The position numbers were made by a program, and so were the translations under genes. A stretch of 64,000 bases of DNA, taken from NCBI GenBank assembly GCA_016931175.1, contig JAFGFH010000008.1, positions 18,477 through 82,476 on the forward strand. Direction: 5' to 3'. Below the pieces are notes generated by a model. That model was not told where the DNA came from, did not search any database, and saw only the letters and a list, made by a program, of their open reading frames with translations. The stretch is from Nanobdellota archaeon. GTDB lineage: Archaea; Nanobdellota; Nanobdellia; Tiddalikarchaeales; Tiddalikarchaeaceae. Shown in pieces: positions 1-52,218 of this stretch (the stretch's first letter is position 1; each line of letters begins with the position of its first letter).

Positions 1-263
1 AGAAGGCAGTGATTGAAGACGTGCTTAGGGAGGTAGAGCCTTTATTAAAGAAGCGTGAAAAGCTTGAAGCTGCAAAGAAGAAGGAATTAAAGGATAATTA
101 TGAAGCCATGGGCCAGAGGATTAACAGAGAAGTCTCTGATGCTATTGCTGAACAGGTTCGCGATTACATAGATGATTTTAACAAGATGGAATTATTCCCT
201 AAGTGTGAGGAAGTATTGAGCGGATTCGTTCCTAAACTGCAGGAAAAGATTCAATTATTCTAA
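1..263 (+). CDS. Hypothetical protein, 3' fragment (ORF runs off the window start)
   Basis: Open frame from base 3 to the stop at 261-263. Charged, coiled-coil-like sequence with no recognisable motif. Confidence 0.3.
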   Translation, partial: KAVIEDVLREVEPLLKKREKLEAAKKKELKDNYEAMGQRINREVSDAIAEQVRDYIDDFNKMELFPKCEEVLSGFVPKLQEKIQLF

Positions 264-1171
264 ACCTGCTTGAATTCTATACTAGCATAATCAACGAAGT
301 TTTCATACTCGTCAGTTACTTCACCGCTAGTGTAATGTTTTAACAACTCTCCTTTGACGCGTTTGCCTTTCATGTTTCTAAGAACATTTATTAAAACAAT
401 TATGCTGTTTAACCCGCAGACAGTTAAAAGATTATCTTTAGCGTACTCAATAACTTTGTTAGTATCTAATTCAGTGATGTATTTTATTAACTCCCTGTCA
501 AGAACCTTAACCTTATCGCTTAACTCTTTTCCCCTCTCATTAAAAGGAATGAAACCGTAACCTACACCCACGTGTGAGAAGTCGCTTGAAGCAATGAATA
601 ATACTCTCTTACTGCTCTTCATCCAAGCCTTGAACAAGGCAGTTCCTAACTCCTTCAAACCCTCACTGTCAGTAAACCTTTTGCTGATAAGAATAGGCAC
701 AATGGTTGGCATCTTGTCTCCGTAAACGTATTTGAAGAAAGGCAGTTGAACCTCTAAACTATGCTCTTGAGAATGGCTTAAATCATCAGGCGTGAACACG
801 CCAGTCTTGAGTAACAATTCATTAAACTCTTTATCAACCTTAACCTCGCCTAATGGTGTCATCCATACACCTTCAGGGTATAATGAAGCAGTATCCCCGT
901 ATCCTGAATGGTTGGGTCCTAATAATACTATAATTTCAGGGTCACTGTTCTCTCCTATCCTGCGGAACGCGTGAGCTGCGCAGTAACCGCTGTAATCATA
1001 ACCAGCGTGGGGGATAATGAATGCTTTAAACTCGTCACTCTTCTTCACAAGGGGAGGGTTTGAAGGCCCGAACTTCTTGTCCAAGAAACACTTCTTAATC
1101 TGGCTCTTTAACTCTTTCTCAGAGCTTTTATAGAATATTCCGCTTACCGCTTCCTGCCTATAAGTTATCAT
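260..1171 (-). CDS. MEMO1-family protein (AmmeMemoRadiSam system protein B-like)
   Basis: 303-aa ORF. The IIPHAGYDYSG and LLGPNHSG motifs are typical of the Memo/dioxygenase-like family. Confidence 0.6.
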   Translation of the reverse strand: MITYRQEAVSGIFYKSSEKELKSQIKKCFLDKKFGPSNPPLVKKSDEFKAFIIPHAGYDYSGYCAAHAFRRIGENSDPEIIVLLGPNHSGYGDTASLYPEGVWMTPLGEVKVDKEFNELLLKTGVFTPDDLSHSQEHSLEVQLPFFKYVYGDKMPTIVPILISKRFTDSEGLKELGTALFKAWMKSSKRVLFIASSDFSHVGVGYGFIPFNERGKELSDKVKVLDRELIKYITELDTNKVIEYAKDNLLTVCGLNSIIVLINVLRNMKGKRVKGELLKHYTSGEVTDEYENFVDYASIEFKQV

Positions 1172-1805
1172 CTGTGAAGTCTTTTAATTCCGCATTATAC
1201 TCTTCATTGTTCTTAATCAAGCCTTTGTTCTTCAAATACTCCCTTCCTAGTATGTAATAAACTAAGGGGAGGCTCTTCTTGCTCTTATTATTGCATGGTA
1301 TTGCGAAATCTATATTCTCAACTGAATTGTTTGAACCAACAAGTCCAAGTATTGGTATGTTGCATAAGACAGCATCCTTAATAGCCTGCTTGTCATGCCA
1401 GGGGTCGCTGACAACTAATAGTTTAGGCTCTATGAACGCGCCGAACTCGGCATTAGTAATAGTTCCAGGCAAGTACCTGCCTATAACGCATCTCATTCCA
1501 GTAATCTCTGCAAGCTTCTTAACCGCTTTATGCCCAGTCTCTCTCCTGCAGACTAAAAGAATATCTTCAGGATTATAATCAGACAATAGTTTAGCTCCTA
1601 GTTTGAGCCTGTTGTCAACGCTTTCTATGTCAAGTATTTTAAGACCGCTCTGTTTAGTCTTGTAAATAAAATCACTGACACTCTTGTTCTTGTACTTGGT
1701 TCCAATATGAATTCCTGCCTTTAAGTACCAGTCTAGTGGAACTAGTAAGTTCTCAGACTCTGTCTGTTTAACATCCTGTTCTTCTTTATCCTTTTTAGCT
1801 GCCAT
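1158..1805 (-). CDS. rps2: 30S ribosomal protein S2 (uS2)
   Basis: 215-aa ORF with uS2-type conserved blocks (GIHIGT..., LLVVSDPWHDKQAIKDA). Sits at the position of the superoperon where S2 normally follows rpoK. Confidence 0.85.
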   Translation of the reverse strand: MAAKKDKEEQDVKQTESENLLVPLDWYLKAGIHIGTKYKNKSVSDFIYKTKQSGLKILDIESVDNRLKLGAKLLSDYNPEDILLVCRRETGHKAVKKLAEITGMRCVIGRYLPGTITNAEFGAFIEPKLLVVSDPWHDKQAIKDAVLCNIPILGLVGSNNSVENIDFAIPCNNKSKKSLPLVYYILGREYLKNKGLIKNNEEYNAELKDFTDDNL

Positions 1806-1809: not shown

Positions 1810-1983
1810 TCAGTCTCTTTTTATAGTTATAGGAATAACGTCTTCTTTCATCTCAAGTCTGGCAATGTTTATTGGGTTAAACTCATTCTTTGGTGTCTTA
1901 ATGAGTATTGGAGCGTCCATGCTTATCTGCAAAGCTCTGGCGCTTAATATCCTTGCTCTTTCAAACTTGTTATAATCCGACAT
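1810..1983 (-). CDS. rpoK: DNA-directed RNA polymerase subunit Rpo6/K (omega-like), 57 aa
   Basis: Not in the ORF track because it is under 60 aa. Hand translation gives MSDYNKFERARILSARALQISMDAPILIKTPKNEFNPINIARLEMKEDVIPITIKRD, which has the Rpo6/RpoK signature FERARILSARALQIS. Tightly packed between rrp42 and rps2. Confidence 0.7.
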   Translation of the reverse strand: MSDYNKFERARILSARALQISMDAPILIKTPKNEFNPINIARLEMKEDVIPITIKRD

Positions 1984-1989: not shown

Positions 1990-2775
1990 TCACTTTATTC
2001 CTTTAATTACTTCAACTATCTTTTCTCTTATTTTAAAACTTTTCGTTAAGCAGTTCCCAACTTCTTCAAGAGTGAAGCCTCCTTCTCCTCCTTTCTGCAA
2101 AGCGTTGATTTCCTTATCACTGCAGGTAACGGTTAGTCTCGCAGAAGCGCACTTCTCCTCTTCATTGTCAGGATCAACCATTATCTTATCCTCTATTTTA
2201 ACAAAAGTTATTGGTATTGGAACCCTTTTGAAAGGAACCTTTTCATCTGTCCATTCCCCGAGAACCACGTTCCCTTCCTCGTCAAGCTTAGGCATCCTCG
2301 CTGTTTTAAGAGCAGCTATTGAAGCCAAACCGCACGCGTCGATTAAGTTGCCCGCATTATTCAGTATGTAAAAGTCTACGAAGATGTTCCACACCTTCTC
2401 TCCTTCAACAATGCAAAGTTTTTCAAAATCAACAGCTTCACTTTCCCTGATTCCCCTGTCAACAACTCTTGACAACTCTATAGCATCCTCTCTAGGAGGT
2501 CCTGGTTCGAAGTCAGGGTCTGATATTGGACTTAACTCTCCAGAGCATATCAGGTTTCCCTTGTTTGGAGTGTCAGGGTAAGGAGTTCCTATGCTCATCT
2601 TAACCCCTGCCATTACAATAGTATCTCCTATGCTAACCTTAGCGCTTCCTTCAGCGTTCTTGCTCACGCCTGATTCTATTATAACATTCCTGAACTCTTC
2701 AAGCCCCCTGTTATCCGTGTTTCTCTTGTTCTTCTTTGCAAGTTCTATTATGTAATTCTTCACATCTTGACTCAT
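1990..2775 (-). CDS. rrp42: Exosome complex component Rrp42 (RNase PH-like, inactive subunit)
   Basis: 261 aa with an RNase PH fold pattern. Position is downstream of rrp41 in the superoperon. Confidence 0.8.
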   Translation of the reverse strand: MSQDVKNYIIELAKKNKRNTDNRGLEEFRNVIIESGVSKNAEGSAKVSIGDTIVMAGVKMSIGTPYPDTPNKGNLICSGELSPISDPDFEPGPPREDAIELSRVVDRGIRESEAVDFEKLCIVEGEKVWNIFVDFYILNNAGNLIDACGLASIAALKTARMPKLDEEGNVVLGEWTDEKVPFKRVPIPITFVKIEDKIMVDPDNEEEKCASARLTVTCSDKEINALQKGGEGGFTLEEVGNCLTKSFKIREKIVEVIKGIK

Positions 2776-4148
2776 TTTTTATCACTCTTTAATAATTGTT
2801 TTGCAATCTTGTCAGCTTCCTTAACCAATTCCTTGCTGACTACTCCTTCCTTTTCGTAATCTTCAAGCAAGTCTTTGCCAATAACTTCCTTGTTATCATC
2901 AGCAGTGTTAACCACTAATTCAAGGGATATTGCTACTGCCCTGTTAGACTGCAGTTCTATTGGAGTGTTTATTGAATAAAAGACTGCTTTTAATTCGTCA
3001 TCTTTAGAGTAAAACTCGTGCTTAACAAACCATTCATCATCTTTAATCAATGAATGCACGTAGTCTCCTCTTTCAACACTCATATTTATAGGTCTGAGAA
3101 CTGAACCGCTCTTAACAAACCTCTTAATTTTTATTACATTATTCTCTTTCTCAATGATTCTTCCCTTCAAAAAATTCGTAGAACCATTCATTTTATTCTC
3201 TGCTATTAAGTAAATGTCTCCTAATTTAGCACCTTTCTCGCTCGTGAATTCAGCAATCTTCTCATTTATCTTCTTCTCGTTTAGCTTTTCTTTTATTAAG
3301 TTCTCGCTGAAGTCAACAATGTTGGCGAAGATGTCAGTCTTTAAACTGTGATGGTTCTCAATTGTTGGCTTTATCTCCCTTCTTAATTTGTCAAGCTCCT
3401 GCTTTGTCTCCTTGTCAAACCTTATATAACAAGTCATTACTCCTTTGCTTAAGACTTTAATATTGTCCTCTTTCTCAAATGCTCTCTTTATATTAGCATA
3501 ACCTTCGTACAAGTCTTTAATCTCTTTCACAAGCTCTTCTTTTTTCTTGCTCGCAGCGCTCGTCTTCCATAAAGCACCCCATCCTTCCTCACAGTTCTCT
3601 TCAGCAACGTTGTTTAACAAGTTAATCACTTCCTTGTCTTTTATGTTATTTGATATCTTAGTGAATCCTTTCTGGATTAGTACAACATTGTTGCCGAACA
3701 AGTGTATCTTGGTTGATAACACGTAACAGTCCTTCTCTTCATTCTTTAACTGGACTAGTATCTTCTCGCCCTCTTTCACATAACCCCAGTAATCCTTCAA
3801 AGGCAATAGTCCAATCTTTTTCAAACCTAAGTCAACGTGTATGTTCTTAGTGTTAGGGTCTAATTTGATTATTTTTCCCAAATACAAGTGTCCGCTGGTT
3901 TCAGTCTGGATTACTGCATTCTTAAACTTTCTGAATATCTCGCAGACCTTATCCGCTTCTTCTCCTTTAACTATGATGCCTCCCTTGTCTGAGAAATCGT
4001 GAATCATAGTTGTGTAGTCTTCAGCAAACTTTGCCTTGCTGAAGCTTGCCCTGACATTATCACTTGGTTGTGCAACACTCATCTTATTCTTTAATAACAA
4101 GTTAGTTATTGCACTGCTGTAGATTCCTCTTATTTTAACTCCGCTCAT
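2772..4148 (-). CDS. FAU-1-like RNA-binding protein / RNase E/G-like ribonuclease
   Basis: 458 aa. The N-terminus MSGVKIRGIYSSAITNLLL...VAQPS resembles the conserved start of archaeal FAU-1 (RGIYSTAL...QPS). The size is typical of that family. Assigned from memory of the family, not a search. Confidence 0.45.
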   Translation of the reverse strand: MSGVKIRGIYSSAITNLLLKNKMSVAQPSDNVRASFSKAKFAEDYTTMIHDFSDKGGIIVKGEEADKVCEIFRKFKNAVIQTETSGHLYLGKIIKLDPNTKNIHVDLGLKKIGLLPLKDYWGYVKEGEKILVQLKNEEKDCYVLSTKIHLFGNNVVLIQKGFTKISNNIKDKEVINLLNNVAEENCEEGWGALWKTSAASKKKEELVKEIKDLYEGYANIKRAFEKEDNIKVLSKGVMTCYIRFDKETKQELDKLRREIKPTIENHHSLKTDIFANIVDFSENLIKEKLNEKKINEKIAEFTSEKGAKLGDIYLIAENKMNGSTNFLKGRIIEKENNVIKIKRFVKSGSVLRPINMSVERGDYVHSLIKDDEWFVKHEFYSKDDELKAVFYSINTPIELQSNRAVAISLELVVNTADDNKEVIGKDLLEDYEKEGVVSKELVKEADKIAKQLLKSDKK

Positions 4149-4855
4149 TTTGTCTCATACCTCTTTTTGAAAACGTCTTTCATCATTTTGTGAATCTCTT
4201 CACAACCCTTGATTCCAAGCTTTATTGCTTCCATTAAATCCTTCTCACTTATCTTACCATCTAATTGAAGCAGTGTTATCTCCTTCTCGCTTGGTATGTA
4301 AGCTATTGGGATGTCAGTCGCGCCTTCACCGTCGTGAACATCCTCTTCCTGCTTTGTTAAATCCAAACAGATTAAATCATCTATTTTCCCGCACGCAACT
4401 GCTGGCACGAAATCTCTCATCTCAATGCCTGCATCAGCAACTGCTAAACTAGCAGCTATTATCGCCGCGCACCTGCTTCCCGCGTCAGCCTGAACTATTT
4501 CAACAAAGACTTCAATCATACTCATAGGGTATTTCTCTACGAATATTGATCTCTCAATAGCATTCTTTATAACAAGACCTAATTCAATGCTTCTCCTGCT
4601 TGGACCAGGTCTTGCTCTGTCAGTAACGCTGAAACTCACAAGGTCGTAATAGCACCTTATTAATAATTTGTCTTTAAGCTCTGCATGCTTAGGCCTTACT
4701 TTTCTTGGCCCGTAAACTCCTGCAATAGCTACAGTCTTTCCAACCTGGACTCTAGCGCTTCCAGTACAGTTTGGCAGTATGCCAACACTCATCTCTACTG
4801 GTCTTAACTCGTCAGCTTTTCTGCCGTCAAATCTTCCTGTTTTTTTGTAACTCAT
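4145..4855 (-). CDS. rrp41: Exosome complex exonuclease Rrp41 (RNase PH catalytic subunit)
   Basis: 236 aa RNase PH domain with phosphate-binding region (RADGR-like RPVEM..., GSA...G). Start overlaps rrp4 by 4 nt. Confidence 0.85.
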   Translation of the reverse strand: MSYKKTGRFDGRKADELRPVEMSVGILPNCTGSARVQVGKTVAIAGVYGPRKVRPKHAELKDKLLIRCYYDLVSFSVTDRARPGPSRRSIELGLVIKNAIERSIFVEKYPMSMIEVFVEIVQADAGSRCAAIIAASLAVADAGIEMRDFVPAVACGKIDDLICLDLTKQEEDVHDGEGATDIPIAYIPSEKEITLLQLDGKISEKDLMEAIKLGIKGCEEIHKMMKDVFKKRYETK

Positions 4856-5544
4856 CTATTACCACCTTTGTTTAATAAGTCTTCAATCTTCTTGGTTAAA
4901 CCACTTATGTGACTCTCATTATTTATTATGCTGATAACTTCCTTAACTTTTTTAACATCATCAGCGTTTCCTTTAATCCAGACGTACCCGTTGTCGCCAA
5001 CGTATATTGTAGTCTTGGTCTTCTTCTCTATCATATCAACCATGCTTCCTTTAGTCCCCATAAGTCTTGGAACCTTAGGAGGATCGATTCTTGCAAGAAC
5101 TCCTCCTTCTAATTTTTTCAAATCAGGTTCTTTAAGTGTTAATCCAATCTTTTTGCTCTCAGTTAATTCAATAATCTTGGCAAATATTACGTCGCCGTAA
5201 TTGAAGTAGTGAGTCATGTCATACCTGTCCGTGTCTATGTAATCCCTGCTTGCCTCGCTTATTCTAAGCCCGGCATCGTAAGGGCAGCCTATGTCAACGA
5301 ACCAGTTAGAAAAATTCATGTCAGTAACTATTCCAACAACGTAATCATCTTTTTGAGGATTATACTCTCCTCCTAGTTTTACTACTCTAATATTATTGTC
5401 TTTAATATTAACTATTCCAACAACACTAGAGTATACTTTGCTGCCTTTATTGTAAGAACCGTCTCTTGCAGCAAAACCTTCACCATCAGCTATTAATTCC
5501 CCAGGGGTTACGATGGTTTTATTCTCTAATAATATTTTTTCCAT
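4852..5544 (-). CDS. rrp4: Exosome RNA-binding subunit Rrp4 (S1 + KH domains)
   Basis: 230 aa. N-terminal VTPGELIA, S1-like middle and C-terminal KH (GTKGSMVDMI). Confidence 0.8.
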   Translation of the reverse strand: MEKILLENKTIVTPGELIADGEGFAARDGSYNKGSKVYSSVVGIVNIKDNNIRVVKLGGEYNPQKDDYVVGIVTDMNFSNWFVDIGCPYDAGLRISEASRDYIDTDRYDMTHYFNYGDVIFAKIIELTESKKIGLTLKEPDLKKLEGGVLARIDPPKVPRLMGTKGSMVDMIEKKTKTTIYVGDNGYVWIKGNADDVKKVKEVISIINNESHISGLTKKIEDLLNKGGNR

Positions 5545-5554
5545 TTTGAAAACT

Positions 5555-6256
5555 TCACCTCAATTTTATACTAACTTCTCCATGAGTAATATTATTCAAT
5601 TTGTTAATAAACTCGTCCTGCAGGCCTCCAGGTATTCTTATGACAAAACTCCAGGAACCGTTGCCTCCCCACTCACTCTTTAATATCTTGCCATACTTGC
5701 TTACTATACCATTAGCTTTTCCCGCGAACTGCGCAGGTATTATTCCTTCAATCTCTTTCTCTTCAAACCTTATTGGGAGAATAGGGCGAAGCGTTTCAAG
5801 CACTGCTTCAACCTGTTCTTCCGCGTTTTTGAAAGGGTCAAAGTTGAAGCTTGCCTGCTCTAATGCAAGTTCTATCCTGGATACTGGTATTGGGAGATTA
5901 TTCCTTGGGTCAATACCATTCCTGCTTATTATGTTTATTACTTCTCTCTGCTTCTGCTCTTTAAGCTTGTTCTTGTATTCAGTAGTTAACTGAATGTGTC
6001 CTTTTGTTATTATCTCATCAGCTATTGTTTCAATATTATCTGTCCCGAAATGCTTTTCAAGCTCGGGTGCGATATCTCCTTTTCTAGCGTCTGAGAATAT
6101 TTTTTCAACCTCAAGAGCTTCACGAACGTCAGTGATTAATCCCTTCCTGTAATCCATTGCTTTTTCAGGTATTAATAATACTTCGAATGTTAAACTGTCT
6201 TTTTTCAGTGTAGCAATGTGATGAGTTTGCTTTTTCTGCTCAAATACTTTCCTCAT
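5555..6256 (-). CDS. SBDS-family ribosome maturation protein (Sdo1)
   Basis: 233 aa. Conserved superoperon position between psmA and rrp4, with SBDS-like N-terminal FYSH-type region. Confidence 0.75.
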   Translation of the reverse strand: MRKVFEQKKQTHHIATLKKDSLTFEVLLIPEKAMDYRKGLITDVREALEVEKIFSDARKGDIAPELEKHFGTDNIETIADEIITKGHIQLTTEYKNKLKEQKQREVINIISRNGIDPRNNLPIPVSRIELALEQASFNFDPFKNAEEQVEAVLETLRPILPIRFEEKEIEGIIPAQFAGKANGIVSKYGKILKSEWGGNGSWSFVIRIPGGLQDEFINKLNNITHGEVSIKLR

Positions 6257-6963
6257 AATTTAGTTTTTAACTTTTTCAAATCTATCTTGGTGAACATTTT
6301 AGTGGTAGTATCAACGTATGCGCCTTCAACCCTGTCAAGATCAAACTTGCCATTCAATCCATTCTTCAATGCGTTTATTGCAAGTTTAAGCGCTTCTTCG
6401 TAAGAGAGGTTTTCTTTATAATTCTTGTTTAAGTAATCTATTATCTCTCTGCTATTTGCTCCAATAGCTCCTGCCTTAAGTTCAAAAAAGACCCCGCTAA
6501 CCTCTGTCATGAACAGGTGAGGTTCTTCATCAACCCCTGCTATTAACAGGCTTACTCCAAAAGGCCTCATTCCTCCATACTGGGTGAATGCCTGCTTCTG
6601 GTTGCAAACGTCTTTAACTAAACCCTTAACATCCATTGCTTCATCATAAGTTGTCTTATGATTCTGAGCTACTTGCTGAGCCCTGTCAATCAATACTCTG
6701 CCGTCGCTAGGCAATCCGCTTATTGCGGCACCGACGTGGTCGTCGATTTTAATTATCTTTTCTACGCTTGAAGGTATGACTAGTTTTTCTAGTATTCTCT
6801 TATCAACTAGTAATAAAACTCCTCCTTTGTACAAGATACCTATAGCAGGCGTTCCTTGATTAACAGTCTCTTTAGCGTATTCTACCTGTAAAAGTCTGCC
6901 GTCCGGGGAGAAGACTGTAATTGCTCTATCGTACCCCATAACGTCACCAGGAAAATTTGCCAT
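6253..6963 (-). CDS. psmA: Proteasome subunit alpha
   Basis: 236 aa. N-terminal YDRAITVFSPDGRLLQVEYA is the canonical proteasome alpha signature. Confidence 0.9.
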   Translation of the reverse strand: MANFPGDVMGYDRAITVFSPDGRLLQVEYAKETVNQGTPAIGILYKGGVLLLVDKRILEKLVIPSSVEKIIKIDDHVGAAISGLPSDGRVLIDRAQQVAQNHKTTYDEAMDVKGLVKDVCNQKQAFTQYGGMRPFGVSLLIAGVDEEPHLFMTEVSGVFFELKAGAIGANSREIIDYLNKNYKENLSYEEALKLAINALKNGLNGKFDLDRVEGAYVDTTTKMFTKIDLKKLKTKL

Positions 6964-7273
6964 GTTTTAACTTTTCACCTTTAATTTTTTTTATTATACC
7001 GCTGGTCTTCAGCGTGTTTATTACAACTCTTTTACCATTAATAACTCTTATCAAAGAGAGAATGTTTATCATCTCATCCTTGAATTTAGGATTCACGCGC
7101 ACAATATTAGTGCCTACGAGCATAACACCCGCCCTGCTGAACCCTTCCTCCCCAAGGAGTTCAAGAGTCTTCTGGTATATACTATTCTTTACTTCGTCTT
7201 TAAAAACCTTTTCCTCACCGATTACCTCGAACAGAATATACCTCTTCTTCTCCCTAGAACTTGGTAAAATCAT
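6944..7273 (-). CDS. rnp2: RNase P protein component 2 (Pop5/Rpp14)
   Basis: The KKRYILFEV motif is typical of Pop5. Start chosen at the internal Met (MILPSSREKKRY). A TATA-like TTTAAAATA lies about 25 nt upstream on the minus strand. Confidence 0.65.
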   Translation of the reverse strand: MILPSSREKKRYILFEVIGEEKVFKDEVKNSIYQKTLELLGEEGFSRAGVMLVGTNIVRVNPKFKDEMINILSLIRVINGKRVVINTLKTSGIIKKIKGEKLKHGKFSW

Positions 7274-7305
7274 ATTATAATTAAAGATTATAGAGTATTT
7301 TAAAC

Positions 7306-7722
7306 TTACCAATCACTTGTTAATGAATAAGATTCAGGCCTCCAAACTGCACTTTTTAAGAATCTGCTGTCAATATCGTAATGGTTTATGTAAATTCTAG
7401 TGAAAGGCATGTAATCCCTTAAGAAATTAAGAGCTATTGGCAGTATTAAAGACTCATCTTCTTTTAAAGACTGGGATTTAACCAGGAGCGAGGGGGTGTG
7501 AATCAAAATGTGTTCATCCTCAGCGGGCAAGTACTCTAACCCTTTCTCATTATTTTTATGAACAATGCTAGAGAAATAAATCTCTAACGCTTCTTCATTA
7601 CTTACATGGTTCACCATTAAGCATTCAAAACCTTTCGGAGGGCTAATCTTTGAAATACTAACTTGTTCATCGAATAAGTCACACAAGCACCTTCTTATAT
7701 TATCAAGAACATTAGCGTTCAT
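7306..7722 (-). CDS. Hypothetical protein (138 aa), second gene of a two-gene insert between rnp3 and rnp2
   Basis: ORF with protein-like composition and no recognisable motif. Lies 5 nt downstream of the preceding ORF, in a different frame. Confidence 0.4.
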   Translation of the reverse strand: MNANVLDNIRRCLCDLFDEQVSISKISPPKGFECLMVNHVSNEEALEIYFSSIVHKNNEKGLEYLPAEDEHILIHTPSLLVKSQSLKEDESLILPIALNFLRDYMPFTRIYINHYDIDSRFLKSAVWRPESYSLTSDW

Positions 7723-7727: not shown

Positions 7728-8057
7728 TTAAACCTCGATTATGCGTGCACCAGGCATTACTTGTTTAATCTCTCCTATAATAAAATCTTTGCAGCTGCCT
7801 TCATATTCCAGCTTGAAATAACCTTCACTAGTATAAGTAACGTAACTAACCTCGTAATCCCTTGTTCTTTCAGTTATTAATAGAACATAACATTGATTAT
7901 TTAAATAAGAGTTGACACTCATTAAATCATCATCAGTGAATAATCTATCAAGGTTGTCTTTTAAATGCCTTAAAGGGTTATCAATAGGTATAACAACTTC
8001 ATCCCTTTTTACCTTGCTACTCAAACAACTCATTCCAATAGCAGGATGCATAAACAA
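7728..8057 (-). CDS. Hypothetical protein (109 aa), first gene of a two-gene insert between rnp3 and rnp2
   Basis: ORF preceded on the minus strand by GGTTTATAATAAG, a TATA-like box about 30 nt upstream of the ATG. Confidence 0.4.
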   Translation of the reverse strand: MFMHPAIGMSCLSSKVKRDEVVIPIDNPLRHLKDNLDRLFTDDDLMSVNSYLNNQCYVLLITERTRDYEVSYVTYTSEGYFKLEYEGSCKDFIIGEIKQVMPGARIIEV

Positions 8058-8083: not shown

Positions 8084-8105
8084 CCTTGCCTTTTTTTTAT
8101 CAAGG
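8084..8105 (-). terminator. Hairpin with oligo-U loop overlapping the rnp3 stop codon (CCTTG-AUAAAAAAAAGG-CAAGG)
   Basis: 5-bp inverted repeat CCTTG/CAAGG flanking an A/T run. On the minus strand it reads through the TGA stop of the upstream gene and precedes the promoter of the next ORF. Confidence 0.3.
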
Positions 8106-8621
8106 AAATATCTTGTTAAAACTTTTTTTTACCCTGCTGAAATTATCAATACCTAAACTCTTTGCCCAAGTCTTAATCTCTAAACCGTTAAATAATTCAT
8201 ACCTGTTCTTGGCGCAGCTGGCGAATAATACAGGCATGTCATACTTAATTGCGCGCCTCATGTTCTCCTTCATCCTTCTAATAATAACTGCCCGCTTATC
8301 GCCTGAAGTATTTAATAACAATCCTAAATTGAAAACTGCTGCTATCTTCTTCTCAGCCATTATCTTGGCAATCGTGTCATCAATGCCAGCCCTCGGGTAA
8401 TGAAGACTGTCCTTTTCATGAATTAGTTCACTGTTTATTACGCCGAAAGGAAGCATCTGCTCAACTGCTTTGCGCAATAATTTAGAATCCTTTGTGTCCA
8501 GGAATACAATATTTTTCCTGTCAAATTTTAAATCACTCTTAATCACAGCACTGCCTACTGTAATATTAAAGACTTTCTTATCATCCTCACTAATATTATA
8601 CAATACGCAGGCATCAAACAT
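8100..8621 (-). CDS. rnp3: RNase P protein component 3 (Rpp30-like), short form
   Basis: 173 aa. The block GIDDTIAKIMAEKKIAAVFNLGLLL...S.A matches the conserved Rpp30 pattern GID..AKLM...A.GF.L..LL. It is the first gene of the superoperon. Confidence 0.5.
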   Translation of the reverse strand: MFDACVLYNISEDDKKVFNITVGSAVIKSDLKFDRKNIVFLDTKDSKLLRKAVEQMLPFGVINSELIHEKDSLHYPRAGIDDTIAKIMAEKKIAAVFNLGLLLNTSGDKRAVIIRRMKENMRRAIKYDMPVLFASCAKNRYELFNGLEIKTWAKSLGIDNFSRVKKSFNKIFP

Positions 8622-11605: not shown

Positions 11606-13093
11606 ATGAGTGATGATTACGTCGCGGACCGCTTGAAAAAAGTTGAGAAACTAAGAGAGCAGGGTGTTAATCCCTACCCTCAAATAGTGCTAAAGACCAG
11701 GAGATTCTCCTCAGATATTTTAAGTGATTATAAGAAGCTTAAAGCTGAAGAATCCTCCAAGAAAACTGAGACAATAGCAGGAAGAATCATGAGCTTAAGA
11801 AACATGGGAAACATAGCATTCGCCCACTTGCAGGATGAGATGGGAAGAGTGCAGGCAGTATTCCAGAAGAATAATTTAGATAATTATAACCGGCTTAAAC
11901 TCTTAGACTTAGGAGACTTCTTAATAGTGAAAGGAAACCCTTTCCGAACCAAGAAAGGAGAATTATCAATTAATACCAAAAGCTTCCAATTAGCATCTAA
12001 GAGCATAAGACCTTTGCCAGAAAAGTATCACGGATTAAAAGATGAAGAGATTATACTAAGAAAGAGGGAATTAGATGCTATAATGAATCCTGAATTATTG
12101 GATAAGTTCAGGAAGAAGTCTTTAATAATCAAGACTATCAGAGAATTCTTCGACAAGAACGGGTTCTTAGAAGTTCAAACACCAGTGCTTCAAACAGTTT
12201 ATGGAGGAGCAAGCGCTGAACCCTTCAAGACACATCATAACTCTTTAGACATTGATTTATATCTAAGAATCGCTCCGGAAATATACTTGAAGAGGTTAAT
12301 AGTTGCAGGTTTTGAAAAGATTTACGAATTAGGCAACAAGTACAGGAATGAAGGCATGGACAAGAGCCATCTTCAGGAAATACTTGACTTGGAATTTTAC
12401 TGGGCTTACCAGGACTATGAAGGTTTAATGAATTTCACAGAGAAACTATTGTCGCACGTTATCAAGAAGATTAACGGTTCACTTAAAGTTTTATACCAGG
12501 GGCAGGCGTTTGATTTCACCCCTCCTTACAAGAGGATAACTTTCAGAGAACTAATCAAGAAGCATACAGGAATAGACATTAACGAGTTCAACACTTTTGA
12601 ATCTTTGAAGAATGAAATAATAAAAAGAAAAATACCTGATGTTGACGTGAAAAAATGCAGGCATTACGGTGCACTGCTTGACGAGTTTTACAAGAGAACC
12701 TGCAGGCCAAAGATTATCCAGCCCTTATTCTTAACAGATTATCCTGCAGAGATGATTCCTTTAGCGAAGAGAAAAGCAGATGATAAGACCAAGATAGCTT
12801 CTTTCCAATTACTAGTCAACGGGTGGGAATTAATCAAAGCATATAATGAATTGAACGATTCTGTTGAACAGCGCACGAGATTGTTAGAACAGCAGAAATT
12901 TCTTGAATTAGGAGACAAGGAAGCGCACCCCTTGGATAAGGATTTCATTGAATCATTAGAGTACGGCATGCCCCCAGTAGCAGGATGGGGTTTAGGGCTT
13001 GCAAGATTCTGCATGCTATTAATGAACGAGTCAAGTATTAGAAGCAGCGTCTTCTTCCCTTTAATGAAGCCTGAGAAAGAGGAGACGGAGTAA
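11606..13093 (+). CDS. lysS: Lysine--tRNA ligase, class II
   Basis: 495 aa. N-terminal OB anticodon-binding region (GRIMSLRNMGNIAFAHLQD), class II motif 2 with YRNEGMD..H..EF and a motif-3 region. Confidence 0.8.
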   Translation: MSDDYVADRLKKVEKLREQGVNPYPQIVLKTRRFSSDILSDYKKLKAEESSKKTETIAGRIMSLRNMGNIAFAHLQDEMGRVQAVFQKNNLDNYNRLKLLDLGDFLIVKGNPFRTKKGELSINTKSFQLASKSIRPLPEKYHGLKDEEIILRKRELDAIMNPELLDKFRKKSLIIKTIREFFDKNGFLEVQTPVLQTVYGGASAEPFKTHHNSLDIDLYLRIAPEIYLKRLIVAGFEKIYELGNKYRNEGMDKSHLQEILDLEFYWAYQDYEGLMNFTEKLLSHVIKKINGSLKVLYQGQAFDFTPPYKRITFRELIKKHTGIDINEFNTFESLKNEIIKRKIPDVDVKKCRHYGALLDEFYKRTCRPKIIQPLFLTDYPAEMIPLAKRKADDKTKIASFQLLVNGWELIKAYNELNDSVEQRTRLLEQQKFLELGDKEAHPLDKDFIESLEYGMPPVAGWGLGLARFCMLLMNESSIRSSVFFPLMKPEKEETE

Positions 13094-28427: not shown

Positions 28428-30110
28428 ATGAAATCTGAAACAATCAGGAAGCATGTTTTAAAAAATGCTGTACTGCACGATGGAAAGTCTCAGGCAGACG
28501 CTATTATACCTAAACTATTAGGAGAAGACCCGAAGCTTAAATCAAAGATTAAGAGTTTAATGCCTGAGATTGAAAAGATAGTTAAAGATGTTAACAAGAT
28601 GAAATTGGAAGCGCAGAAGAAGGAGCTGCTTAAACTAGACAAGCACGCTTTGGACAAGAAAGAGGAGAGAAATGATTTGCCTCCAATAAAAGACATAAAA
28701 GAAGGGGAGTGCAGTTTCAGACTGCCTCCAGGACCTGAGAAGCAATTGCACGTAGGCCACGCCTTAACATACTTATTGAATAATTACTACGCGAAGAGGT
28801 ATAAAGGCAAACTAATACTTCGCTTTGAAGACACTAATCCTGAGACTTGCAGGCAGGAGTTCGTTGACGGCAACAAGGAAGACTTGAAAGCCTTAGGAAT
28901 CACGTGGGACAAGGAATACTTCCTCAGCGACAACATGAGTGAGTATTACAAGTTATGCGATAAGATGATGAAGAACGGAGACGTTTACTCCTGCAACTGC
29001 AATAGTGAGAAGATGCAGGAGGACAGGAAGAAGAGAAAGAGGTGCAAGTGCGCTGACAAGACAGTAACTGAGAATCTTAGGGATTGGAACAAGATGAAAT
29101 ACGGCACTTACAAAGAAGGGGAATGCGTTATAAGATTAAAAGGGGACATGAAGAATAAGAACAGCGTAATGTGGGACCCTGTCATGTTCAGAGTTAACAA
29201 GACCAAGCATTACAGGCAGGGCAGTAAGTATAGTGCTTGGCCCATGTATGATTTTACAGTAGCATTTGAGGATGCTAAGATTACACACGTGTTAAGGGAT
29301 GCTAACTGGACTCAAAGAGTTGAACTTCAGGATTATATAAGAGAAAAATTAAGCATTAAAAAGCACCCGGTTAATGTGTTATACTCCAGGTACCAGATAG
29401 AGGGAGGAGTAACGCAGGGAAGAGTAATACGCGAACTCGTTAATACAGGCGTTGTAACTGGTTACGATGATTTAAGGCTTGCAACGGTTAAGGCATTGCT
29501 CAGGAGAGGAATACTGCCTGAGGCAATGATGGAGTTATTGAAAGAGGTGGGCATTACAAAATCGAAGACTACAATAGCTTTAGAGAAACTCTATACTATA
29601 AACAGGAGATTACTGGACAAGAGAGTGAACCATTACTTCTTCGTTGAGGAGCCTGTATTATTAGTGGTGAATAATCCTCCAGTGGAATTAAGCTTTAATG
29701 TTCCAATGAATCCTTACACTGATAAGACTAGGACGATAAAAACGAACGGCTTGTTCTACATCAACAAATCAGATGCTAAGAAAGGGCTTATAAGGTTAAA
29801 ACACGCTTATAATGTTGAGATAAAAAAGGTAGAAGATAAGACAATAACAGGAGAATATGTTAAAGAAGCGTCTATCAAGAATGTTCCAATAATACAATGG
29901 GTTCCTGAGAAAGAATTCTTAGAGATTAAAATAATAGAAGCCCTGCCATTGTTTAACAAGAAGGAAGAGGTTCAGAAGGACTCATTAATAACTCATAAAG
30001 GTTATGCTGAGAAAACCGTTGATTTTCTTCCAATAGGCACTCAAGTGCAGTTTGAGAGGTTCGCTTTCTGCAGGAAAGAAGCAGACCAGTGGGTGTTAAC
30101 GCATAAGTGA
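28428..30110 (+). CDS. gltX: Glutamate--tRNA ligase, archaeal type (likely non-discriminating)
   Basis: HIGH motif PGPEKQLHVGHA, archaeal-type N-terminal helical extension, Cys-rich insertion (CNCNS...CKC). Immediately upstream of gatD-gatE. Confidence 0.85.
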   Translation: MKSETIRKHVLKNAVLHDGKSQADAIIPKLLGEDPKLKSKIKSLMPEIEKIVKDVNKMKLEAQKKELLKLDKHALDKKEERNDLPPIKDIKEGECSFRLPPGPEKQLHVGHALTYLLNNYYAKRYKGKLILRFEDTNPETCRQEFVDGNKEDLKALGITWDKEYFLSDNMSEYYKLCDKMMKNGDVYSCNCNSEKMQEDRKKRKRCKCADKTVTENLRDWNKMKYGTYKEGECVIRLKGDMKNKNSVMWDPVMFRVNKTKHYRQGSKYSAWPMYDFTVAFEDAKITHVLRDANWTQRVELQDYIREKLSIKKHPVNVLYSRYQIEGGVTQGRVIRELVNTGVVTGYDDLRLATVKALLRRGILPEAMMELLKEVGITKSKTTIALEKLYTINRRLLDKRVNHYFFVEEPVLLVVNNPPVELSFNVPMNPYTDKTRTIKTNGLFYINKSDAKKGLIRLKHAYNVEIKKVEDKTITGEYVKEASIKNVPIIQWVPEKEFLEIKIIEALPLFNKKEEVQKDSLITHKGYAEKTVDFLPIGTQVQFERFAFCRKEADQWVLTHK

Positions 30111-30151: not shown

Positions 30152-31477
30152 ATGTATTCCAGTAAAGTTCTTTCAAAATTAAAGAAGAATAAGATAAGTA
30201 TAGGGAGCTTGATAGAAGTAAGCACTCATGACGAAAGCTTTACAGGATTATTAATCAACAGGCCGGATTATTTACTGGATGATAATTTAATCATAAAATT
30301 AGACAACGGTTACAATATTGGAGTAAGCTTTTCAAAGATTAAATCCTTAAAATTGTTAAAAAAACCAGAGAAGGAGTTGAAAAAGAAGGACAAGAAGCAG
30401 ACAGTTAAGAAGGATTTTATAAGCATACTTCACACTGGTGGAACGATTGCAAGCAAAGTTGATTACAGGACAGGAGGAGTAGTGTCCCGTTTCGACCCTG
30501 AAGAGTTAATAAAGATGTTTCCAGGGCTTGAAGATTACGGGCCAATCCACAGCGTTTTCATGGGAAACATGTTCAGTGATGACATGCGTTTTGCCCACTA
30601 TGCTAAGATGGCAGATTATGTCAAGAAAGAAGTAAGTCTTGGAAGCAAAGGCGTTATAATCACTCACGGCACTGACACTATGGGTTACAGCGCTGCAGCT
30701 TTAAGCTTCATCTTTGACAACCTTCCAATACCAGTAATACTAGTAGGTGCTCAGAGAAGCAGTGACAGGGGCAGCAGTGATGCTGAGATGAACATATTAT
30801 GCGCTGCCAAGTTTATAAGAAAATCAGATTTCAGGGGAGTAGCTGTCTGCATGCATGAGACGAGCAGTGATGATACCTGCGTAATATTAAGAGGTGTTAA
30901 TGTTAGAAAAATGCACTCCAGCAGGAGGGATGCTTTCAAGACAATTAATGACGAAGTTATTGCAAGGGTTGAATACCAGGACGATGATATTACTTTTTTA
31001 TCCGAGCATGAGAAGAGAACAGATAGTTTAAAAGATTTCATTGTCAAGCCGTTGATGGAGAACAAGGTTGCGTTGTTAAAAGTGCACACTAATATGATGA
31101 GCGAGCAGATAGCATTTTACCGCGAGAAGAATTATAAGGGATTAGTGATAGAAGGAACAGGGCTCGGCCACTTGCCTATAAGCGAGATTGACGCTCCAAC
31201 CAAAGAGCATACTAGGATAAGGAATGAGGTTAAGAAACTAGTTGATTCAGGATGCGCTGTTGTAATGTGCTCCCAGACTATTAACGGCAGGGTTAACATG
31301 AACGTTTACAGTCCGGGCAGGGACTTGTTAAACATGGGAGTATTACCAGGAGAAGACATGCTTTCAGAGACTGCATTTGTTAAACTGGCATGGTTACTGG
31401 CTAATGAGAAGAAAAATGTTCGCGAATTAATTAAAACAAATCTCAGGGGAGAGATAAAGAAGAGGTTAATAAGATGA
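30152..31477 (+). CDS. gatD: Glutamyl-tRNA(Gln) amidotransferase subunit D
   Basis: Asparaginase-like domain with ILHTGGTIAS and HGTDTM motifs. 441 aa. 4-nt overlap with gatE. Confidence 0.85.
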   Translation: MYSSKVLSKLKKNKISIGSLIEVSTHDESFTGLLINRPDYLLDDNLIIKLDNGYNIGVSFSKIKSLKLLKKPEKELKKKDKKQTVKKDFISILHTGGTIASKVDYRTGGVVSRFDPEELIKMFPGLEDYGPIHSVFMGNMFSDDMRFAHYAKMADYVKKEVSLGSKGVIITHGTDTMGYSAAALSFIFDNLPIPVILVGAQRSSDRGSSDAEMNILCAAKFIRKSDFRGVAVCMHETSSDDTCVILRGVNVRKMHSSRRDAFKTINDEVIARVEYQDDDITFLSEHEKRTDSLKDFIVKPLMENKVALLKVHTNMMSEQIAFYREKNYKGLVIEGTGLGHLPISEIDAPTKEHTRIRNEVKKLVDSGCAVVMCSQTINGRVNMNVYSPGRDLLNMGVLPGEDMLSETAFVKLAWLLANEKKNVRELIKTNLRGEIKKRLIR

Positions 31478-33267
31478 AGGCAGGACTCGAACTGCACATG
31501 CAGGTTAATACTGGAAAACTCTTCTGCAGGTGCCCGAATATTATAGTAAAGGATGAAACCCCTGATTACGTTATTAAGAGAAAACTCCACGCTGTAGCTG
31601 GAGAGACAGGAGATTATGACATAGCAGCAGTTAAAGAACAGGAGAAGAACAAAATAATCAAGTATAATTGTTTTAATGACAACGTCTGCCTGGTTGATAT
31701 TGACGAGGAGCCTCCCAGGGAGATTGACATGAATGCCTTCAAAGCAGCTCTTGAAATCGCACTGCTTTTGAACATGAAACCAGTTGAAGAGTTTCACGTT
31801 ATGAGGAAATTAATAATTGACGGAAGCGCTGTAAGCGGTTTTCAAAGAACAGGATTATTAGCAACAAATGGTTATATTGAAACTAGCGAGGGCAGGGTTA
31901 GAATCGCAACATTGTGCCTGGAAGAGGACAGCGCCAAGAGAATAGATGATAACACATTCTCCCTTGACAGGCTTGGCATACCTCTTATAGAGATAGCTAC
32001 AGAGCCTGACATTATCAGCCCTTTGCATGCGAGGGAGGTTGCTGAAAAGATAGGTTCTATCTGCAAATTCACAGGAAGATTAATGAGAGGAATTGGAACA
32101 ATCAGGCAGGACGTTAACGTTTCAATACCTGGAGGGGACAGGGTTGAGATTAAAGGAGTTCAGGACTTGAGACTCATGCCTAAGTTTGTTGAATTAGAGG
32201 TTCAGAGGCAGGAAAACCTGTTAAGGCTCAAGGACGAGTTAAAGAAGAGGAAGTTCTTAATTAATTCACCCACGGATTTGTCTAATATTTTCAAGGATTC
32301 CAAGTGCGGTTTCTTGAAAGGCTCAGAGGTTCACGGCTTTAAACTAAGTGATGCTAAAGGATTAATGGGTTTAAGATTGCAGGAAGGAAAGAGTTTCGGG
32401 AAAGACGTTGCAGAACACGTTAAGGAATCTACAGGCATTAAAGGATTATTGCACATTGATGAACTGCCTAATTATGGTGTAAGCGTTGAAGAGGTTCAAA
32501 AGGTAATATCCTCTCTTAAATGCGGATTGAATGATAATTTCATCTTAGTATCGTGTTCTAAGAATATTATCAAGAAGGTTCATGAGGTCGTCAGCGAGAG
32601 GTTCAAACAGGCATTGAAAGGAGTTGCGCGTGAAGTAAGGGCTCCAAACCACGTTGACGGAACCACTAGTTATATGAGGCCTCTTCCTGGAGGCAAGAGA
32701 ATGTACCCTGAAACAGACGTTAATGTAATAAAGGTTAAGATTGAAATGATTAGTGAAATTATTGATAACTTAAGCAAGACTCCAGAGCAAATGTATACTT
32801 GGCTTAAGAGCACTGGATTGAATGACGAGTTAGCGAACCAGTTGCTTCACAGCACAAAGTACGAATTGTATGAGAAGATAACTGATGCAACAAATTATGA
32901 CAACAGGATTACTGCATCATTAATACTTTCCAATCCTGTTGAGAGATTAAGTGATAAGTTATTAATTAAACTGTTTAAAATGTTAGAGCTTAACCAGTTA
33001 TGCAAGGAGTCCTTGCCTGAAATAATTGAAGATTTATTGAGAAAACATAGTTTTGAAAAAACTGTCAAGAAGTTCAAGCAATTATCAACCAAGGAAATTA
33101 CAGCGAAGGTTAAAAAGGCAGTAGTTAAGAATAAGAAGATATTAAAGCATCCCAGCGCCTTTGGTGTAATAATGAAGGATTTATTGAAAAGTTTAAAAGG
33201 CAAGGCTGACGCGGGAGTAATAAGCAAAGTATTAAGACAAGAGTTGAGCAAGTATGATAAGCTTTAA
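31474..33267 (+). CDS. gatE: Glutamyl-tRNA(Gln) amidotransferase subunit E
   Basis: N-terminal MKAGLELH.Q....KLFC.C GatB/E-type start. 597 aa, typical of GatE. Confidence 0.85.
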   Translation: MKAGLELHMQVNTGKLFCRCPNIIVKDETPDYVIKRKLHAVAGETGDYDIAAVKEQEKNKIIKYNCFNDNVCLVDIDEEPPREIDMNAFKAALEIALLLNMKPVEEFHVMRKLIIDGSAVSGFQRTGLLATNGYIETSEGRVRIATLCLEEDSAKRIDDNTFSLDRLGIPLIEIATEPDIISPLHAREVAEKIGSICKFTGRLMRGIGTIRQDVNVSIPGGDRVEIKGVQDLRLMPKFVELEVQRQENLLRLKDELKKRKFLINSPTDLSNIFKDSKCGFLKGSEVHGFKLSDAKGLMGLRLQEGKSFGKDVAEHVKESTGIKGLLHIDELPNYGVSVEEVQKVISSLKCGLNDNFILVSCSKNIIKKVHEVVSERFKQALKGVAREVRAPNHVDGTTSYMRPLPGGKRMYPETDVNVIKVKIEMISEIIDNLSKTPEQMYTWLKSTGLNDELANQLLHSTKYELYEKITDATNYDNRITASLILSNPVERLSDKLLIKLFKMLELNQLCKESLPEIIEDLLRKHSFEKTVKKFKQLSTKEITAKVKKAVVKNKKILKHPSAFGVIMKDLLKSLKGKADAGVISKVLRQELSKYDKL

Positions 33268-45242: not shown

Positions 45243-45524
45243 ATGATTGACGAGGCTAAAGTTAAACACGTGGCAGAGCTAGCTAGGCTTAGATTAAGCA
45301 GTGAAGAGGTTACCAAGTTTGCCAGGCAATTGAATGATGTTATTGAAAGCTTCAAAATACTTGACGAGGTAAACGTTGAAGGGGTAGAGCCCAGTTTTCA
45401 CCCAATAAAGACTGAGAACGTCTTAAGAGAGGATAATGTGGAGAAGTGCTTGGACAAGAAGACAGTGTTTAAACTGGCCTGCCACAAGGAAGATGACTAC
45501 TTTAAAACTCCGAAGATAGTGTGA
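45243..45524 (+). CDS. gatC: Aspartyl/glutamyl-tRNA amidotransferase subunit C
   Basis: V.HVA.LARL.L..EE...F..QL..V...F..L..V...V.P GatC pattern. 93 aa. Confidence 0.75.
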   Translation: MIDEAKVKHVAELARLRLSSEEVTKFARQLNDVIESFKILDEVNVEGVEPSFHPIKTENVLREDNVEKCLDKKTVFKLACHKEDDYFKTPKIV

Positions 45525-45529
45525 AGATA

Positions 45530-45688
45530 ATGATGCAAGATTTTGATTTTTTTGAAAACGATTGGATAGGTTTCGAAGACGAAACCGACTGCGACGAGTT
45601 CTGCATAGGAACACAGGAAGAGATAGAGGTAGAGCAGGTAATGGAATTGTACAGGAAGAAGTACGGGAACACGAGGATTGCAAGATAA
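45530..45688 (+). CDS. Small acidic ORF (52 aa) between gatC and gatA
   Basis: MMQDFDFFENDWIGFEDETDCDEFCIGTQEEIEVEQVMELYRKKYGNTRIAR. Its stop overlaps the gatA ATG (TAATG), suggesting translational coupling. May be spurious. Confidence 0.25.
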   Translation: MMQDFDFFENDWIGFEDETDCDEFCIGTQEEIEVEQVMELYRKKYGNTRIAR

Positions 45689-48931: not shown

Positions 48932-49228
48932 ATGGTTACTGTATTTGGTATGATGCCTCAGGAATTGTTCTATATCAGCTTCAGCTTCTTAGTTTTCATA
49001 ATAACCATACTATCAATTGTTATAACCGTAGCTGTTATTATGGGAACAGTAATGGGAGTTAAGATTGGCAAGAGCATTAGTGAGAGCATAGAAGATGTTA
49101 AGAGAAAGGCTAGAAAGACTTTCAGAGTCTTTGACGTATTCCTTGACTTATTCGCCGGCAACGACGAGGAAGAGGAAGAAGAGTCAGATGACGAGGAAGT
49201 ATACGTCTTGAAAAAGAAGAAGAAATAA
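48932..49228 (+). CDS. Small membrane protein with poly-acidic C-terminal tail (98 aa)
   Basis: One or two TM helices, then a DEEEEEESDDEE tail. A T-rich tract follows (CCCTTTTTTTTTTC). Confidence 0.4.
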   Translation: MVTVFGMMPQELFYISFSFLVFIITILSIVITVAVIMGTVMGVKIGKSISESIEDVKRKARKTFRVFDVFLDLFAGNDEEEEEESDDEEVYVLKKKKK

Positions 49229-49295
49229 TACGCCCTTTTTTTTTCTATAACTTTTTTTTAAAATCTTAAATAAAAAACTTTTTAAAAGAAAAATA

Positions 49296-49898: not shown

Positions 49899-49937
49899 TC
49901 AAAAGCTTTAAAACCAGAATTGTTTAGTATTTAAATT

Positions 49938-50627: not shown

Positions 50628-50645
50628 TTTAGCTTTTTCTTCATA

Positions 50646-52021: not shown

Positions 52022-52056
52022 TAAAGTATTAGAAAAAAACCGTTTTTAATAAAGTT

Positions 52057-52140: not shown

Positions 52141-52218
52141 AAGGAAAATAAGGACTTTATTCATTTTTAATTGTTTTCATAAGGCTTTTAAACAGGATAC
52201 TTTTCAGAAAATACTATT

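Follow-up and report, generated by a model that had tools for sequence, protein, structure and literature searches.

The DNA considered here is a stretch of 64,000 nucleotides from contig JAFGFH010000008.1 (GenBank assembly GCA_016931175.1) of a Nanobdellota archaeon, hereafter called the window. In its list of open reading frames (ORFs), a frame for 458 amino acids (2772..4148, minus strand) stands between the genes for two exosome ring subunits, rrp41 and rrp42. Its product, referred to as FAU-1 or the window protein, begins with MSGVKIRGIYSSAITNLLLKNKMSVAQPS and belongs, according to phmmer, AlphaFold2 and Foldseek, to the RNase W/FAU-1 family; its catalytic site is degenerate. On one side lies rrp41 (4145..4855, minus strand, 236 amino acids), which encodes the ring subunit with the phosphorolytic site and matches the Pfam families RNase_PH and RNase_PH_C as well as TIGR02065 (276 bits). 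This Rrp41 retains the phosphate-binding and catalytic motifs of its active site: PGPxRRSIE, QADAG(S/T)R and D(I/V)P are aligned and conserved in the comparison with Pyrococcus abyssi Rrp41 (2pnz, E 4.9e-69). On the other side, rrp42 (1990..2775, minus strand, 261 amino acids) is recognized by NF003282 with 292.4 bits, above the cutoff of 280. Both junctions are ATGA overlaps of four nucleotides that can be read directly from the sequence. At 4145..4148 (minus strand; ...ACA AAA TGA / ATG AGC GGA) the rrp41 stop codon overlaps the FAU-1 start codon, and at 2772..2775 (minus strand; ...AAA AAA TGA / ATG AGT CAA) the FAU-1 stop codon overlaps the start of rrp42. The original prediction for this DNA, which had quoted the same N-terminus, had described a 458-residue ORF exactly between the Rrp41 and Rrp42 genes with four-nucleotide overlaps on either side. 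The ORF, the profile matches and both junctions bear this out, and the strand, which had not been given, is the minus strand. The ORF is a genuine gene and no chance reading frame, because an identical protein is present at NCBI (titled 'ribonuclease E/G [Nanoarchaeota archaeon]'), homologues extend down to 25% identity, the predicted fold is confident and the ratio of nonsynonymous to synonymous substitution rates (dN/dS) is well below 1.

The window protein is a full-length homologue by descent of Pyrococcus FAU-1, the enzyme now called RNase W. A phmmer search against solved structures returned the FAU-1/RNase W entries 8rza and 8wo8 (E 1.8e-52), with residues 3-452 of the query aligned to residues 8-465 of 8rza at an identity of about 30%. 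An AlphaFold2 model built with 72 homologues in the alignment reached a mean predicted local distance difference test score (pLDDT) of 93.2 and a predicted template modelling (TM) score of 0.86. It contains all five domains of the RNase W fold, i.e., the central, S1 and 5'-sensor domains, a helical bundle and the DUF402 barrel. Best Foldseek matches of the model were 8rza (E 1e-41, TM 0.72), 8wo8 (TM 0.74) and 8rzf (E 4e-30) from Pyrococcus furiosus (8rza, 8wo8) and Sulfolobus acidocaldarius (8rzf), with TM scores of 0.69-0.74 overall. The same five-domain architecture is shared with the Haloferax volcanii orthologue. The family is small: when clustered at 50% identity, its members found in 1.84 billion representatives form 447 clusters. 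Approximate domain boundaries, taken from the alignment to P. furiosus RNase W, place the S1 domain at about residues 84-150 (3699..3899, minus strand), where the clade that includes the window protein (the window clade) is best conserved. The 5'-sensor-like domain, which falls into the Pfam RNase_E_G match, lies at about residues 151-215 (3504..3698, minus strand), and the DUF402-fold domain at about residues 306-440 (2829..3233, minus strand). This last domain has kept its fold, as seen with Foldseek, while alignment and Pfam score show it to be devoid of the catalytic and metal-binding residues.

The original prediction had called the N-terminus FAU-1-like, and the profile and structure comparisons agree. 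Apart from the match to P. furiosus FAU-1, Pfam RNase_E_G is passed with 34.5 bits (cutoff 25.5), TM scores to RNase W reach 0.72-0.74, and neither a missing FAU-1 or RNase E/G match nor a different fold was encountered. Of the accompanying designation as an RNase E/G-like endoribonuclease only one part stands. S1 and the 5'-sensor are indeed domains common to RNase E and the window protein, whereas the nuclease site of the family is in DUF402 and an RNase E catalytic domain is missing. This is a general property of RNase W, which has only the non-catalytic S1 and 5'-sensor domains in common with RNase E (PMC11602121). In line with this, the RNase_E_G match covers residues 150-301 and profile positions 2-156 of 270, the alignment with Escherichia coli RNase E is confined to residues 85-226, and Foldseek alignments to RNase E extend over at most 222 columns. 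In the Foldseek ranking, the S1/5'-sensor parts of RNase E follow RNase W with TM scores of about 0.3 (E. coli and Caulobacter RNase E, E 1e-8 to 1e-10). The DNase-I-like catalytic domain, the Zn-link and the small domain of the bacterial enzymes RNase E and RNase G are absent. Membership in the Rne/Rng family was considered and rejected, given 49.3 bits for TIGR00757 against a cutoff of 325.95, 23 against 594 for the RNase G equivalog and the merely partial RNase_E_G profile match. The NCBI name 'ribonuclease E/G' is thus misleading and is corrected here. Next in the Foldseek ranking come the DUF402 phosphatases FomD, Staphylococcus aureus Ntdp/Sa1684 and SC4828 (5zdn, 7d8g and 3cbt, E 6e-6 to 2e-5). 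They share the C-terminal beta-barrel and helices with the window protein. In contrast to these nucleoside di- and triphosphatases and to RNase W, which have acidic metal ligands in common, the window protein lacks such ligands and stays below the profile cutoff.

In P. furiosus RNase W, nuclease activity resides in the C-terminal DUF402 domain, which is a potent RNase in isolation, with N404, D420, D424, D437 and D364 as metal ligands; in the isolated domain, the exchange D424K abolishes and H326A reduces activity (PMC11602121). The central domain has been shown to be non-catalytic, and the N-terminal part binds 5'-phosphorylated RNA, regulates RNA binding and restrains the nuclease (PMC11602121). 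When these published residues are mapped via HMMER and MAFFT alignments, P. furiosus H326, D364, N404, D420, D424 and D437 correspond to E317, R352, S392, S408, V412 and G424 of the window protein in the MAFFT alignment; the D424 position falls into a gap in the pairwise HMMER alignment. The four aspartates are missing from all 15 distinct proteins of the window clade, and the residues in their places and in that of N404 are non-acidic and differ from protein to protein. The signature HKDYNDEDD is unchanged in the sister protein P0017, in Thermococcales and Bathyarchaeia and in other relatives of the tree (simple neighbour-joining, with database names for some branches only). Scores for Pfam DUF402 (PF04167, cutoff 23.9 bits) follow the same line. 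Proteins with an intact site score 45.1 (P0018), 49.9 (P0017) and 60.5 bits (P. furiosus RNase W, P0035). Where the site is lost, the window protein reaches 12.8 and P0014 14.8 bits, while P0005 and P0021 have no match. Among positions that are at least 90% conserved elsewhere in the family, the clade has kept 29 of the 37 located within the first 300 residues, but only 8 of the 19 located in DUF402. As judged from the alignments, the known catalytic centre of RNase W is destroyed in the window protein and its clade. Because the DUF402 residues are replaced and PF04167 stays below its cutoff, the window protein is predicted to be an RNase W homologue that lacks competence by the family's known mechanism.

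The central-domain residues R12, R261, H271, H272 and K275 of the P. furiosus enzyme are all kept as R7, R256, H266, H267 and K270, and K40 is present too. All 72 family members in the alignment carry R256, H266, H267 and K270 without exception, and R7 is at least 90% conserved. P. furiosus R10 is a lysine in the window protein. In the 5'-sensor, K170, S172, R201 and T202 are represented by K164, S166, K195 (a change from arginine to lysine) and T196, and the 5'-phosphate pocket is thus partly preserved; R173, K174 and R181, in contrast, are replaced by N167, N168 and I175. Residues in contact with RNA phosphates, K319, R343 and S366 (P. furiosus K328, R355 and T378), are largely retained.

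The original prediction had gone further and suggested that an endonuclease in the exosome operon provides coordinated endo- and exonucleolytic decay, i.e., that FAU-1 creates entry sites for the 3'-5' exosome. For the window protein, this suggestion is not supported, given the replacement of all metal ligands by variable, non-acidic residues throughout the clade and the lost DUF402 profile match. Moreover, the central domain is non-catalytic in P. furiosus and the RNase E-like part comes without the RNase E catalytic domain. Membership in the RNase W family is nevertheless established, and full-length P. furiosus D424K and H326A proteins stayed near wild-type activity in vitro (PMC11602121). 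The loss of these residues is therefore no strict proof that all RNase activity is lost, and another site is conceivable. In addition, the position of H326 is taken by a glutamate, E317, that is invariant in the clade and could belong to a remodelled site. Both observations speak for an active nuclease and at the same time against the non-catalytic role put forward below. Taken together, we regard an endonuclease function of the window protein as quite improbable. Coupled decay is a plausible model for those relatives that share the position in the exosome operon and carry the full catalytic signature (L009-L015, L018, L020, L021 and P0017), and in these embedded proteins, whose catalytic aspartates are in place, cleavage of the RNase W type probably continues alongside the exosome partnership.

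A different explanation for the lost site would be decay, with the gene for RNase W turning into a pseudogene in a reduced genome. DUF402 is indeed the least conserved domain in the window clade (mean pairwise identity 0.51, compared with 0.64-0.83 for the other domains and the highest value, 0.83, for S1), its dN/dS is about two to three times that of the remaining protein, and some relatives have shorter DUF402 regions and measure 413-438 residues overall. However, dN/dS values determined for unsaturated pairs among relatives lie between 0.10 and 0.26 in DUF402 and between 0.03 and 0.12 in the remainder, in both cases far below 1. Full length and an intact frame are maintained in 15 distinct clade proteins whose identity goes down to about 55%, the DUF402 fold is confidently predicted by AlphaFold2 despite the loss of the site, and the phosphate-contacting residues mentioned above are largely in place. 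The DUF402 domain is under purifying selection; on account of dN/dS and length conservation, we reject a pseudogene and find a decaying relic hardly credible. Because the nuclease centre is destroyed while fold, S1/5'-sensor domains and central residues stay under selection, the role of the protein is most likely non-catalytic.

The insertion between rrp41 and rrp42 is not a peculiarity of the window. A scan of one genome per species yielded 24 loci with this order, all from Nanoarchaeota-type metagenome-assembled genomes. The taxon labels, which are those of the depositors, are Nanoarchaeia, Woesearchaeota, Parvarchaeota, Haiyanarchaeum and Tiddalikarchaeum, the two named genera representing two orders of Nanobdellota. 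The genes for Rrp4 and Rrp41 reside directly upstream in 24/24 loci, and that for Rrp42 directly downstream in all 20 loci that reach past FAU-1. L001, L002, L031 (P0017) and the deeply branching L032 (P0106) have the order as well, and so do 12/12 metagenome loci whose identity is at least 33%. The insertion is present in all 39 other distinct Nanoarchaeota-type loci, where FAU-1 identity drops to about 31-35%, and the junctions in 26 related loci are either overlaps or gaps of no more than 15 nucleotides. Whether related genomes share the insertion, as the original prediction had asked, is thus answered in the affirmative. An exosome gene beside RNase W was found in none of 72 other loci (Thermococcus L027, Bathyarchaeia L028, L029, L030 and 68 metagenome loci). 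The split into 39 loci with and 72 without the insertion agrees with the protein phylogeny, and it may be proposed that the position of an RNase W homologue between rrp41 and rrp42 was fixed at an early stage of the radiation of the Nanoarchaeota (Nanobdellota). Because its start and stop codons overlap those of the neighbours, FAU-1 and the ring subunits are probably translated jointly.

In other archaea, the gene for RNase W has rtcA as its neighbour, lies close to trm5 or is surrounded by unrelated genes. RtcA (RNA 3'-phosphate cyclase) is encoded directly upstream and on the same strand in 27 of the 72 non-exosome loci outside the Nanoarchaeota (L028:3961-6401, L029:4010-6476 and 25 metagenome loci, e.g., L077, L082-L084, L086, L094-L103 and L105-L112), and in L085 beside RNase W on the opposite strand. 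This neighbourhood agrees with the observation of a 3'-phosphate in the active site of RNase W. Gene neighbourhood, exosome and RtcA are not mentioned in the paper on RNase W (PMC11602121). In a further form of the protein, which comprises 498 residues, the S1 region is extended by a long insertion (L030:2122-3618; relatives P0022, P0105, P0112 and P0135). In the neighbour-joining tree, this form adjoins the Nanoarchaeota clade; its catalytic signature is intact, and exosome neighbours are absent.

The distribution of site loss is uneven. In the non-exosome loci, D420, D424 and D437 are kept in 72/72 cases and D364 in 71/72. Scoring of 141 representatives at 50% identity at the four aspartate positions showed all four to be kept in 124, and most of the remaining ones differ by one change (D364N; D437E or N), two of them with an additional change of E422. 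Near-complete loss in this set is limited to P0002 (window clade), P0150 and the distant protein P0290. In the shorter, Nanoarchaeota-type proteins P0157, P0159, P0160 and P0162, the DUF402 region is truncated or degenerate. Within the lineage embedded in the exosome operon, degenerate sites turn up in no fewer than four places: the window clade, a clade of shortened 438-residue proteins without any Pfam DUF402 match (L024, L025, L044, P0020 and P0021), L017 and L019. The DUF402 site losses in L024, L025, L044, L017 and L019 (FAU-1 at about 5001-6311) are further, apparently independent ones. Near-complete loss of the site is thus a repeated event which, as far as the gene context of the loci is known, is confined to the lineage embedded in the exosome operon.

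The embedded proteins also share features of their own, irrespective of whether the site is kept or lost. In 33 exosome-embedded proteins, conservation of G86, W121, G122 and K129 amounts to at least 91%, whereas it stays below 25% in 70 other RNase W proteins. More generally, G86, W121-G122, K129, F151 and G161-F162-T163 are common to the embedded proteins and rare in the other 70, and the S1 loop with W121-G122 sets the window protein apart from the characterized RNase W proteins. These S1 and junction residues are a candidate for a lineage-specific interaction surface.

The genes around FAU-1 form a co-directional, densely packed block on the minus strand, which is a classical archaeal exosome superoperon (exosome / RNase P / SBDS / proteasome) plus one extra gene. 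It starts with a short Rpp30-like ORF for an RNase P subunit (8100..8621), for which the match to Pfam RNase_P_p30 is weak (30.6 bits, below the cutoff of 35); the gene at the same position in L031 has a weak p30 match as well. Two ORFs without Pfam match (7728-8057 and 7306-7722, minus strand) separate it, at the head of the operon, from the gene for the RNase P subunit Pop5/Rpp14 (6944..7312; RNase_P_Rpp14, 48.7 bits). The genes for the proteasome alpha subunit (6253..6963; Proteasome, Proteasome_A_N), an SBDS homologue related to ribosome biogenesis (5555..6256; SBDS_N, SBDS_domain_II, SBDS_C) and the exosome cap protein Rrp4 with its S1 and KH domains (4852..5544; ECR1_N_2, RRP4_S1, KH_6) follow. 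Beyond rrp41, FAU-1 and rrp42 lie the genes for RpoK (RNA polymerase subunit Rpb6/K; 1810..1983, 57 amino acids, identified by translation and RNA_pol_Rpb6 with 36.6 bits), for ribosomal protein uS2 (1158..1805; Ribosomal_S2) and, as the last gene of the block, for a Memo-like protein (260..1171; Memo, 222 bits). The rpoK gene is shorter than the default ORF length cutoff and easily overlooked between rrp42 and rpS2; it is present at the corresponding place in L001, L002, L031 and L032.

We tentatively propose, with a chance that we would put slightly below even, that the window protein is a non-catalytic, RNA-binding partner of the exosome that is produced along with the ring. It would bind single-stranded or 5'-phosphorylated RNA, probably rRNA precursors, and either present the bound RNA to the exosome encoded in the same operon or regulate that exosome, which probably works without the cap protein Csl4. 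Endonucleolytic cuts would not be supplied by the window protein. Instead, selection would act on RNA binding and presentation by the S1/5'-sensor/central module, possibly with a contribution of the DUF402 groove, rather than on cleavage. That the gene has stayed between those for the partners of an obligate heterodimer despite very deep divergence suggests that its product assembles with the exosome or is present in a fixed ratio to it. Members of Cluster 2 DPANN, to which this lineage belongs, have been reported to keep Rrp4, Rrp41 and Rrp42 and to lack Csl4 (PMC7414124), and the partnership may compensate for this loss.

The same position can be explained by a fundamentally different role: The protein could be an autonomous factor for ribosome biogenesis or RNA processing (compare late 16S rRNA maturation) that is merely co-regulated in the superoperon and has no physical tie to the exosome. 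In favour of this role, H. volcanii has RNase W but belongs to the haloarchaea, which are not known to possess an exosome. The block contains Pop5, Rpp30-like, SBDS, proteasome alpha, RpoK and uS2 genes, none of them for exosome subunits, other archaea have the RNase W gene in unrelated genomic contexts, and in H. volcanii RNase W aids a late step of pre-16S rRNA maturation (PMC11602121). RNase activity and a role in pre-16S rRNA maturation are documented for P. furiosus and H. volcanii only (PMC11602121). Against mere co-regulation stands the fact that the gene sits exactly between the genes for the subunits of an obligate heterodimer, with overlapping codons, in all 39 other loci and at FAU-1 identities as low as about 31-35%. 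Gene order conserved at such depth is typical of physically interacting proteins. In addition, the concentration of site loss in the embedded lineage is not predicted by an autonomous nuclease role. We therefore consider the autonomous factor somewhat unlikely.

Several further points weigh against the proposed partnership. Gene order is the sole link of the window protein to the exosome, and co-regulation alone could explain its position in an operon with additional genes for RNase P, SBDS, proteasome, RpoK and S2. A mirror-tree test for co-evolution with seven operon proteins from 23 loci could not discriminate and is not used as evidence. Partial correlations for FAU-1 were highest with Rrp41 (0.46) and Rrp4 (0.44), while Rrp41-Rrp42, a pair that truly interacts, reached no more than 0.20 and the unrelated pair Rrp42-S2 0.50. 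Furthermore, part of the basic patch of the 5'-sensor is lost, the 3'-phosphate patch R173/K174/R181 of P. furiosus being replaced by N167/N168/I175. With regard to Csl4, no Csl4-type Pfam match was found among the scanned ORFs of the 64-kb window, which does not imply absence from the genome; 64 kb cannot exclude either Csl4 or a second, active RNase W elsewhere.

The archaeal exosome caps Csl4 and Rrp4 resemble the window protein in having an S1 RNA-binding domain and in being encoded together with ring subunits, and the DPANN group with the insertion is precisely the one in which Csl4 has been reported to be absent (PMC7414124). The homology is limited to the generic S1 fold. In contrast to the caps, the window protein has no Csl4/Rrp4 N-terminal domain, no KH domain and no Zn-ribbon. 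No ECR1_N, KH or Csl4-type Pfam match was found in it up to an E-value of 10, and Foldseek similarity to Rrp4 chains is weak and of the generic S1 type (E 0.009-0.05). By its architecture, the window protein is not a cap protein of the Csl4/Rrp4 type. In a bolder version of the partnership, which we deem unlikely, the RNase W homologue would be a true stoichiometric exosome subunit or fixed cofactor that was recruited upon the loss of Csl4 and docks by the clade-specific S1 surface. Trimerisation of FAU-1 through DUF402, reported by Kawai et al. according to its citation in PMC11602121, might match the three-fold symmetry of the ring. The extra RNase-family protein would have been an active nuclease when it joined the ring and would later, in several lineages, have served as a dead RNA-binding adaptor. 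If true, this would constitute a new exosome architecture and an independent parallel to the eukaryotic core with Rrp44 and inactivated, enzyme-derived subunits. The concept is alike insofar as eukaryotic Exo9 with Rrp44/Dis3 and dead RNase PH subunits also joins a core to an RNase-family protein and uses enzyme-derived, non-catalytic parts for RNA binding. The protein families are unrelated and the likeness is one of analogy only: here, the Rrp41 of the ring keeps its motifs and the added protein has lost its site.

In a literature search, no paper was found that describes the insertion into the exosome operon, the loss of the DUF402 site or an operon link between RNase W and the exosome. The gene itself is already in the databases; its insertion and catalytic degeneration are apparently undescribed. 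RNase W was defined only in 2024. The fixed position together with repeated site loss in one lineage of at least two named orders makes RNase W a testable candidate for an exosome partner whose essential job is not cleavage. This bears on the substrates, partners and regulation of RNase W as well as on the question how the Csl4-less exosome of Cluster 2 DPANN works, and the natural catalytic-dead variants could help to separate RNA-binding from nuclease roles in the family.

The window yielded some observations beyond the exosome region. It encodes both tRNA-dependent amidotransferases on the plus strand, at 30152-33267 and 45243-48518, i.e., GatD/GatE and GatC/GatA/GatB; the GatA ORF matches the generic Amidase family only. 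Genes for a glutamyl-tRNA synthetase (GluRS; 28428-30110) and for a class II aminoacyl-tRNA synthetase of the D/K/N type (11606-13093) are also present. Eight consecutive ORFs for 98-345 amino acids without Pfam match extend from 48932 to 54626 and may represent a variable or foreign island, with a gene for tRNA-Leu (52056-52141, minus strand) inside this stretch and one for tRNA-Thr (54768-54839, plus strand) at its edge.

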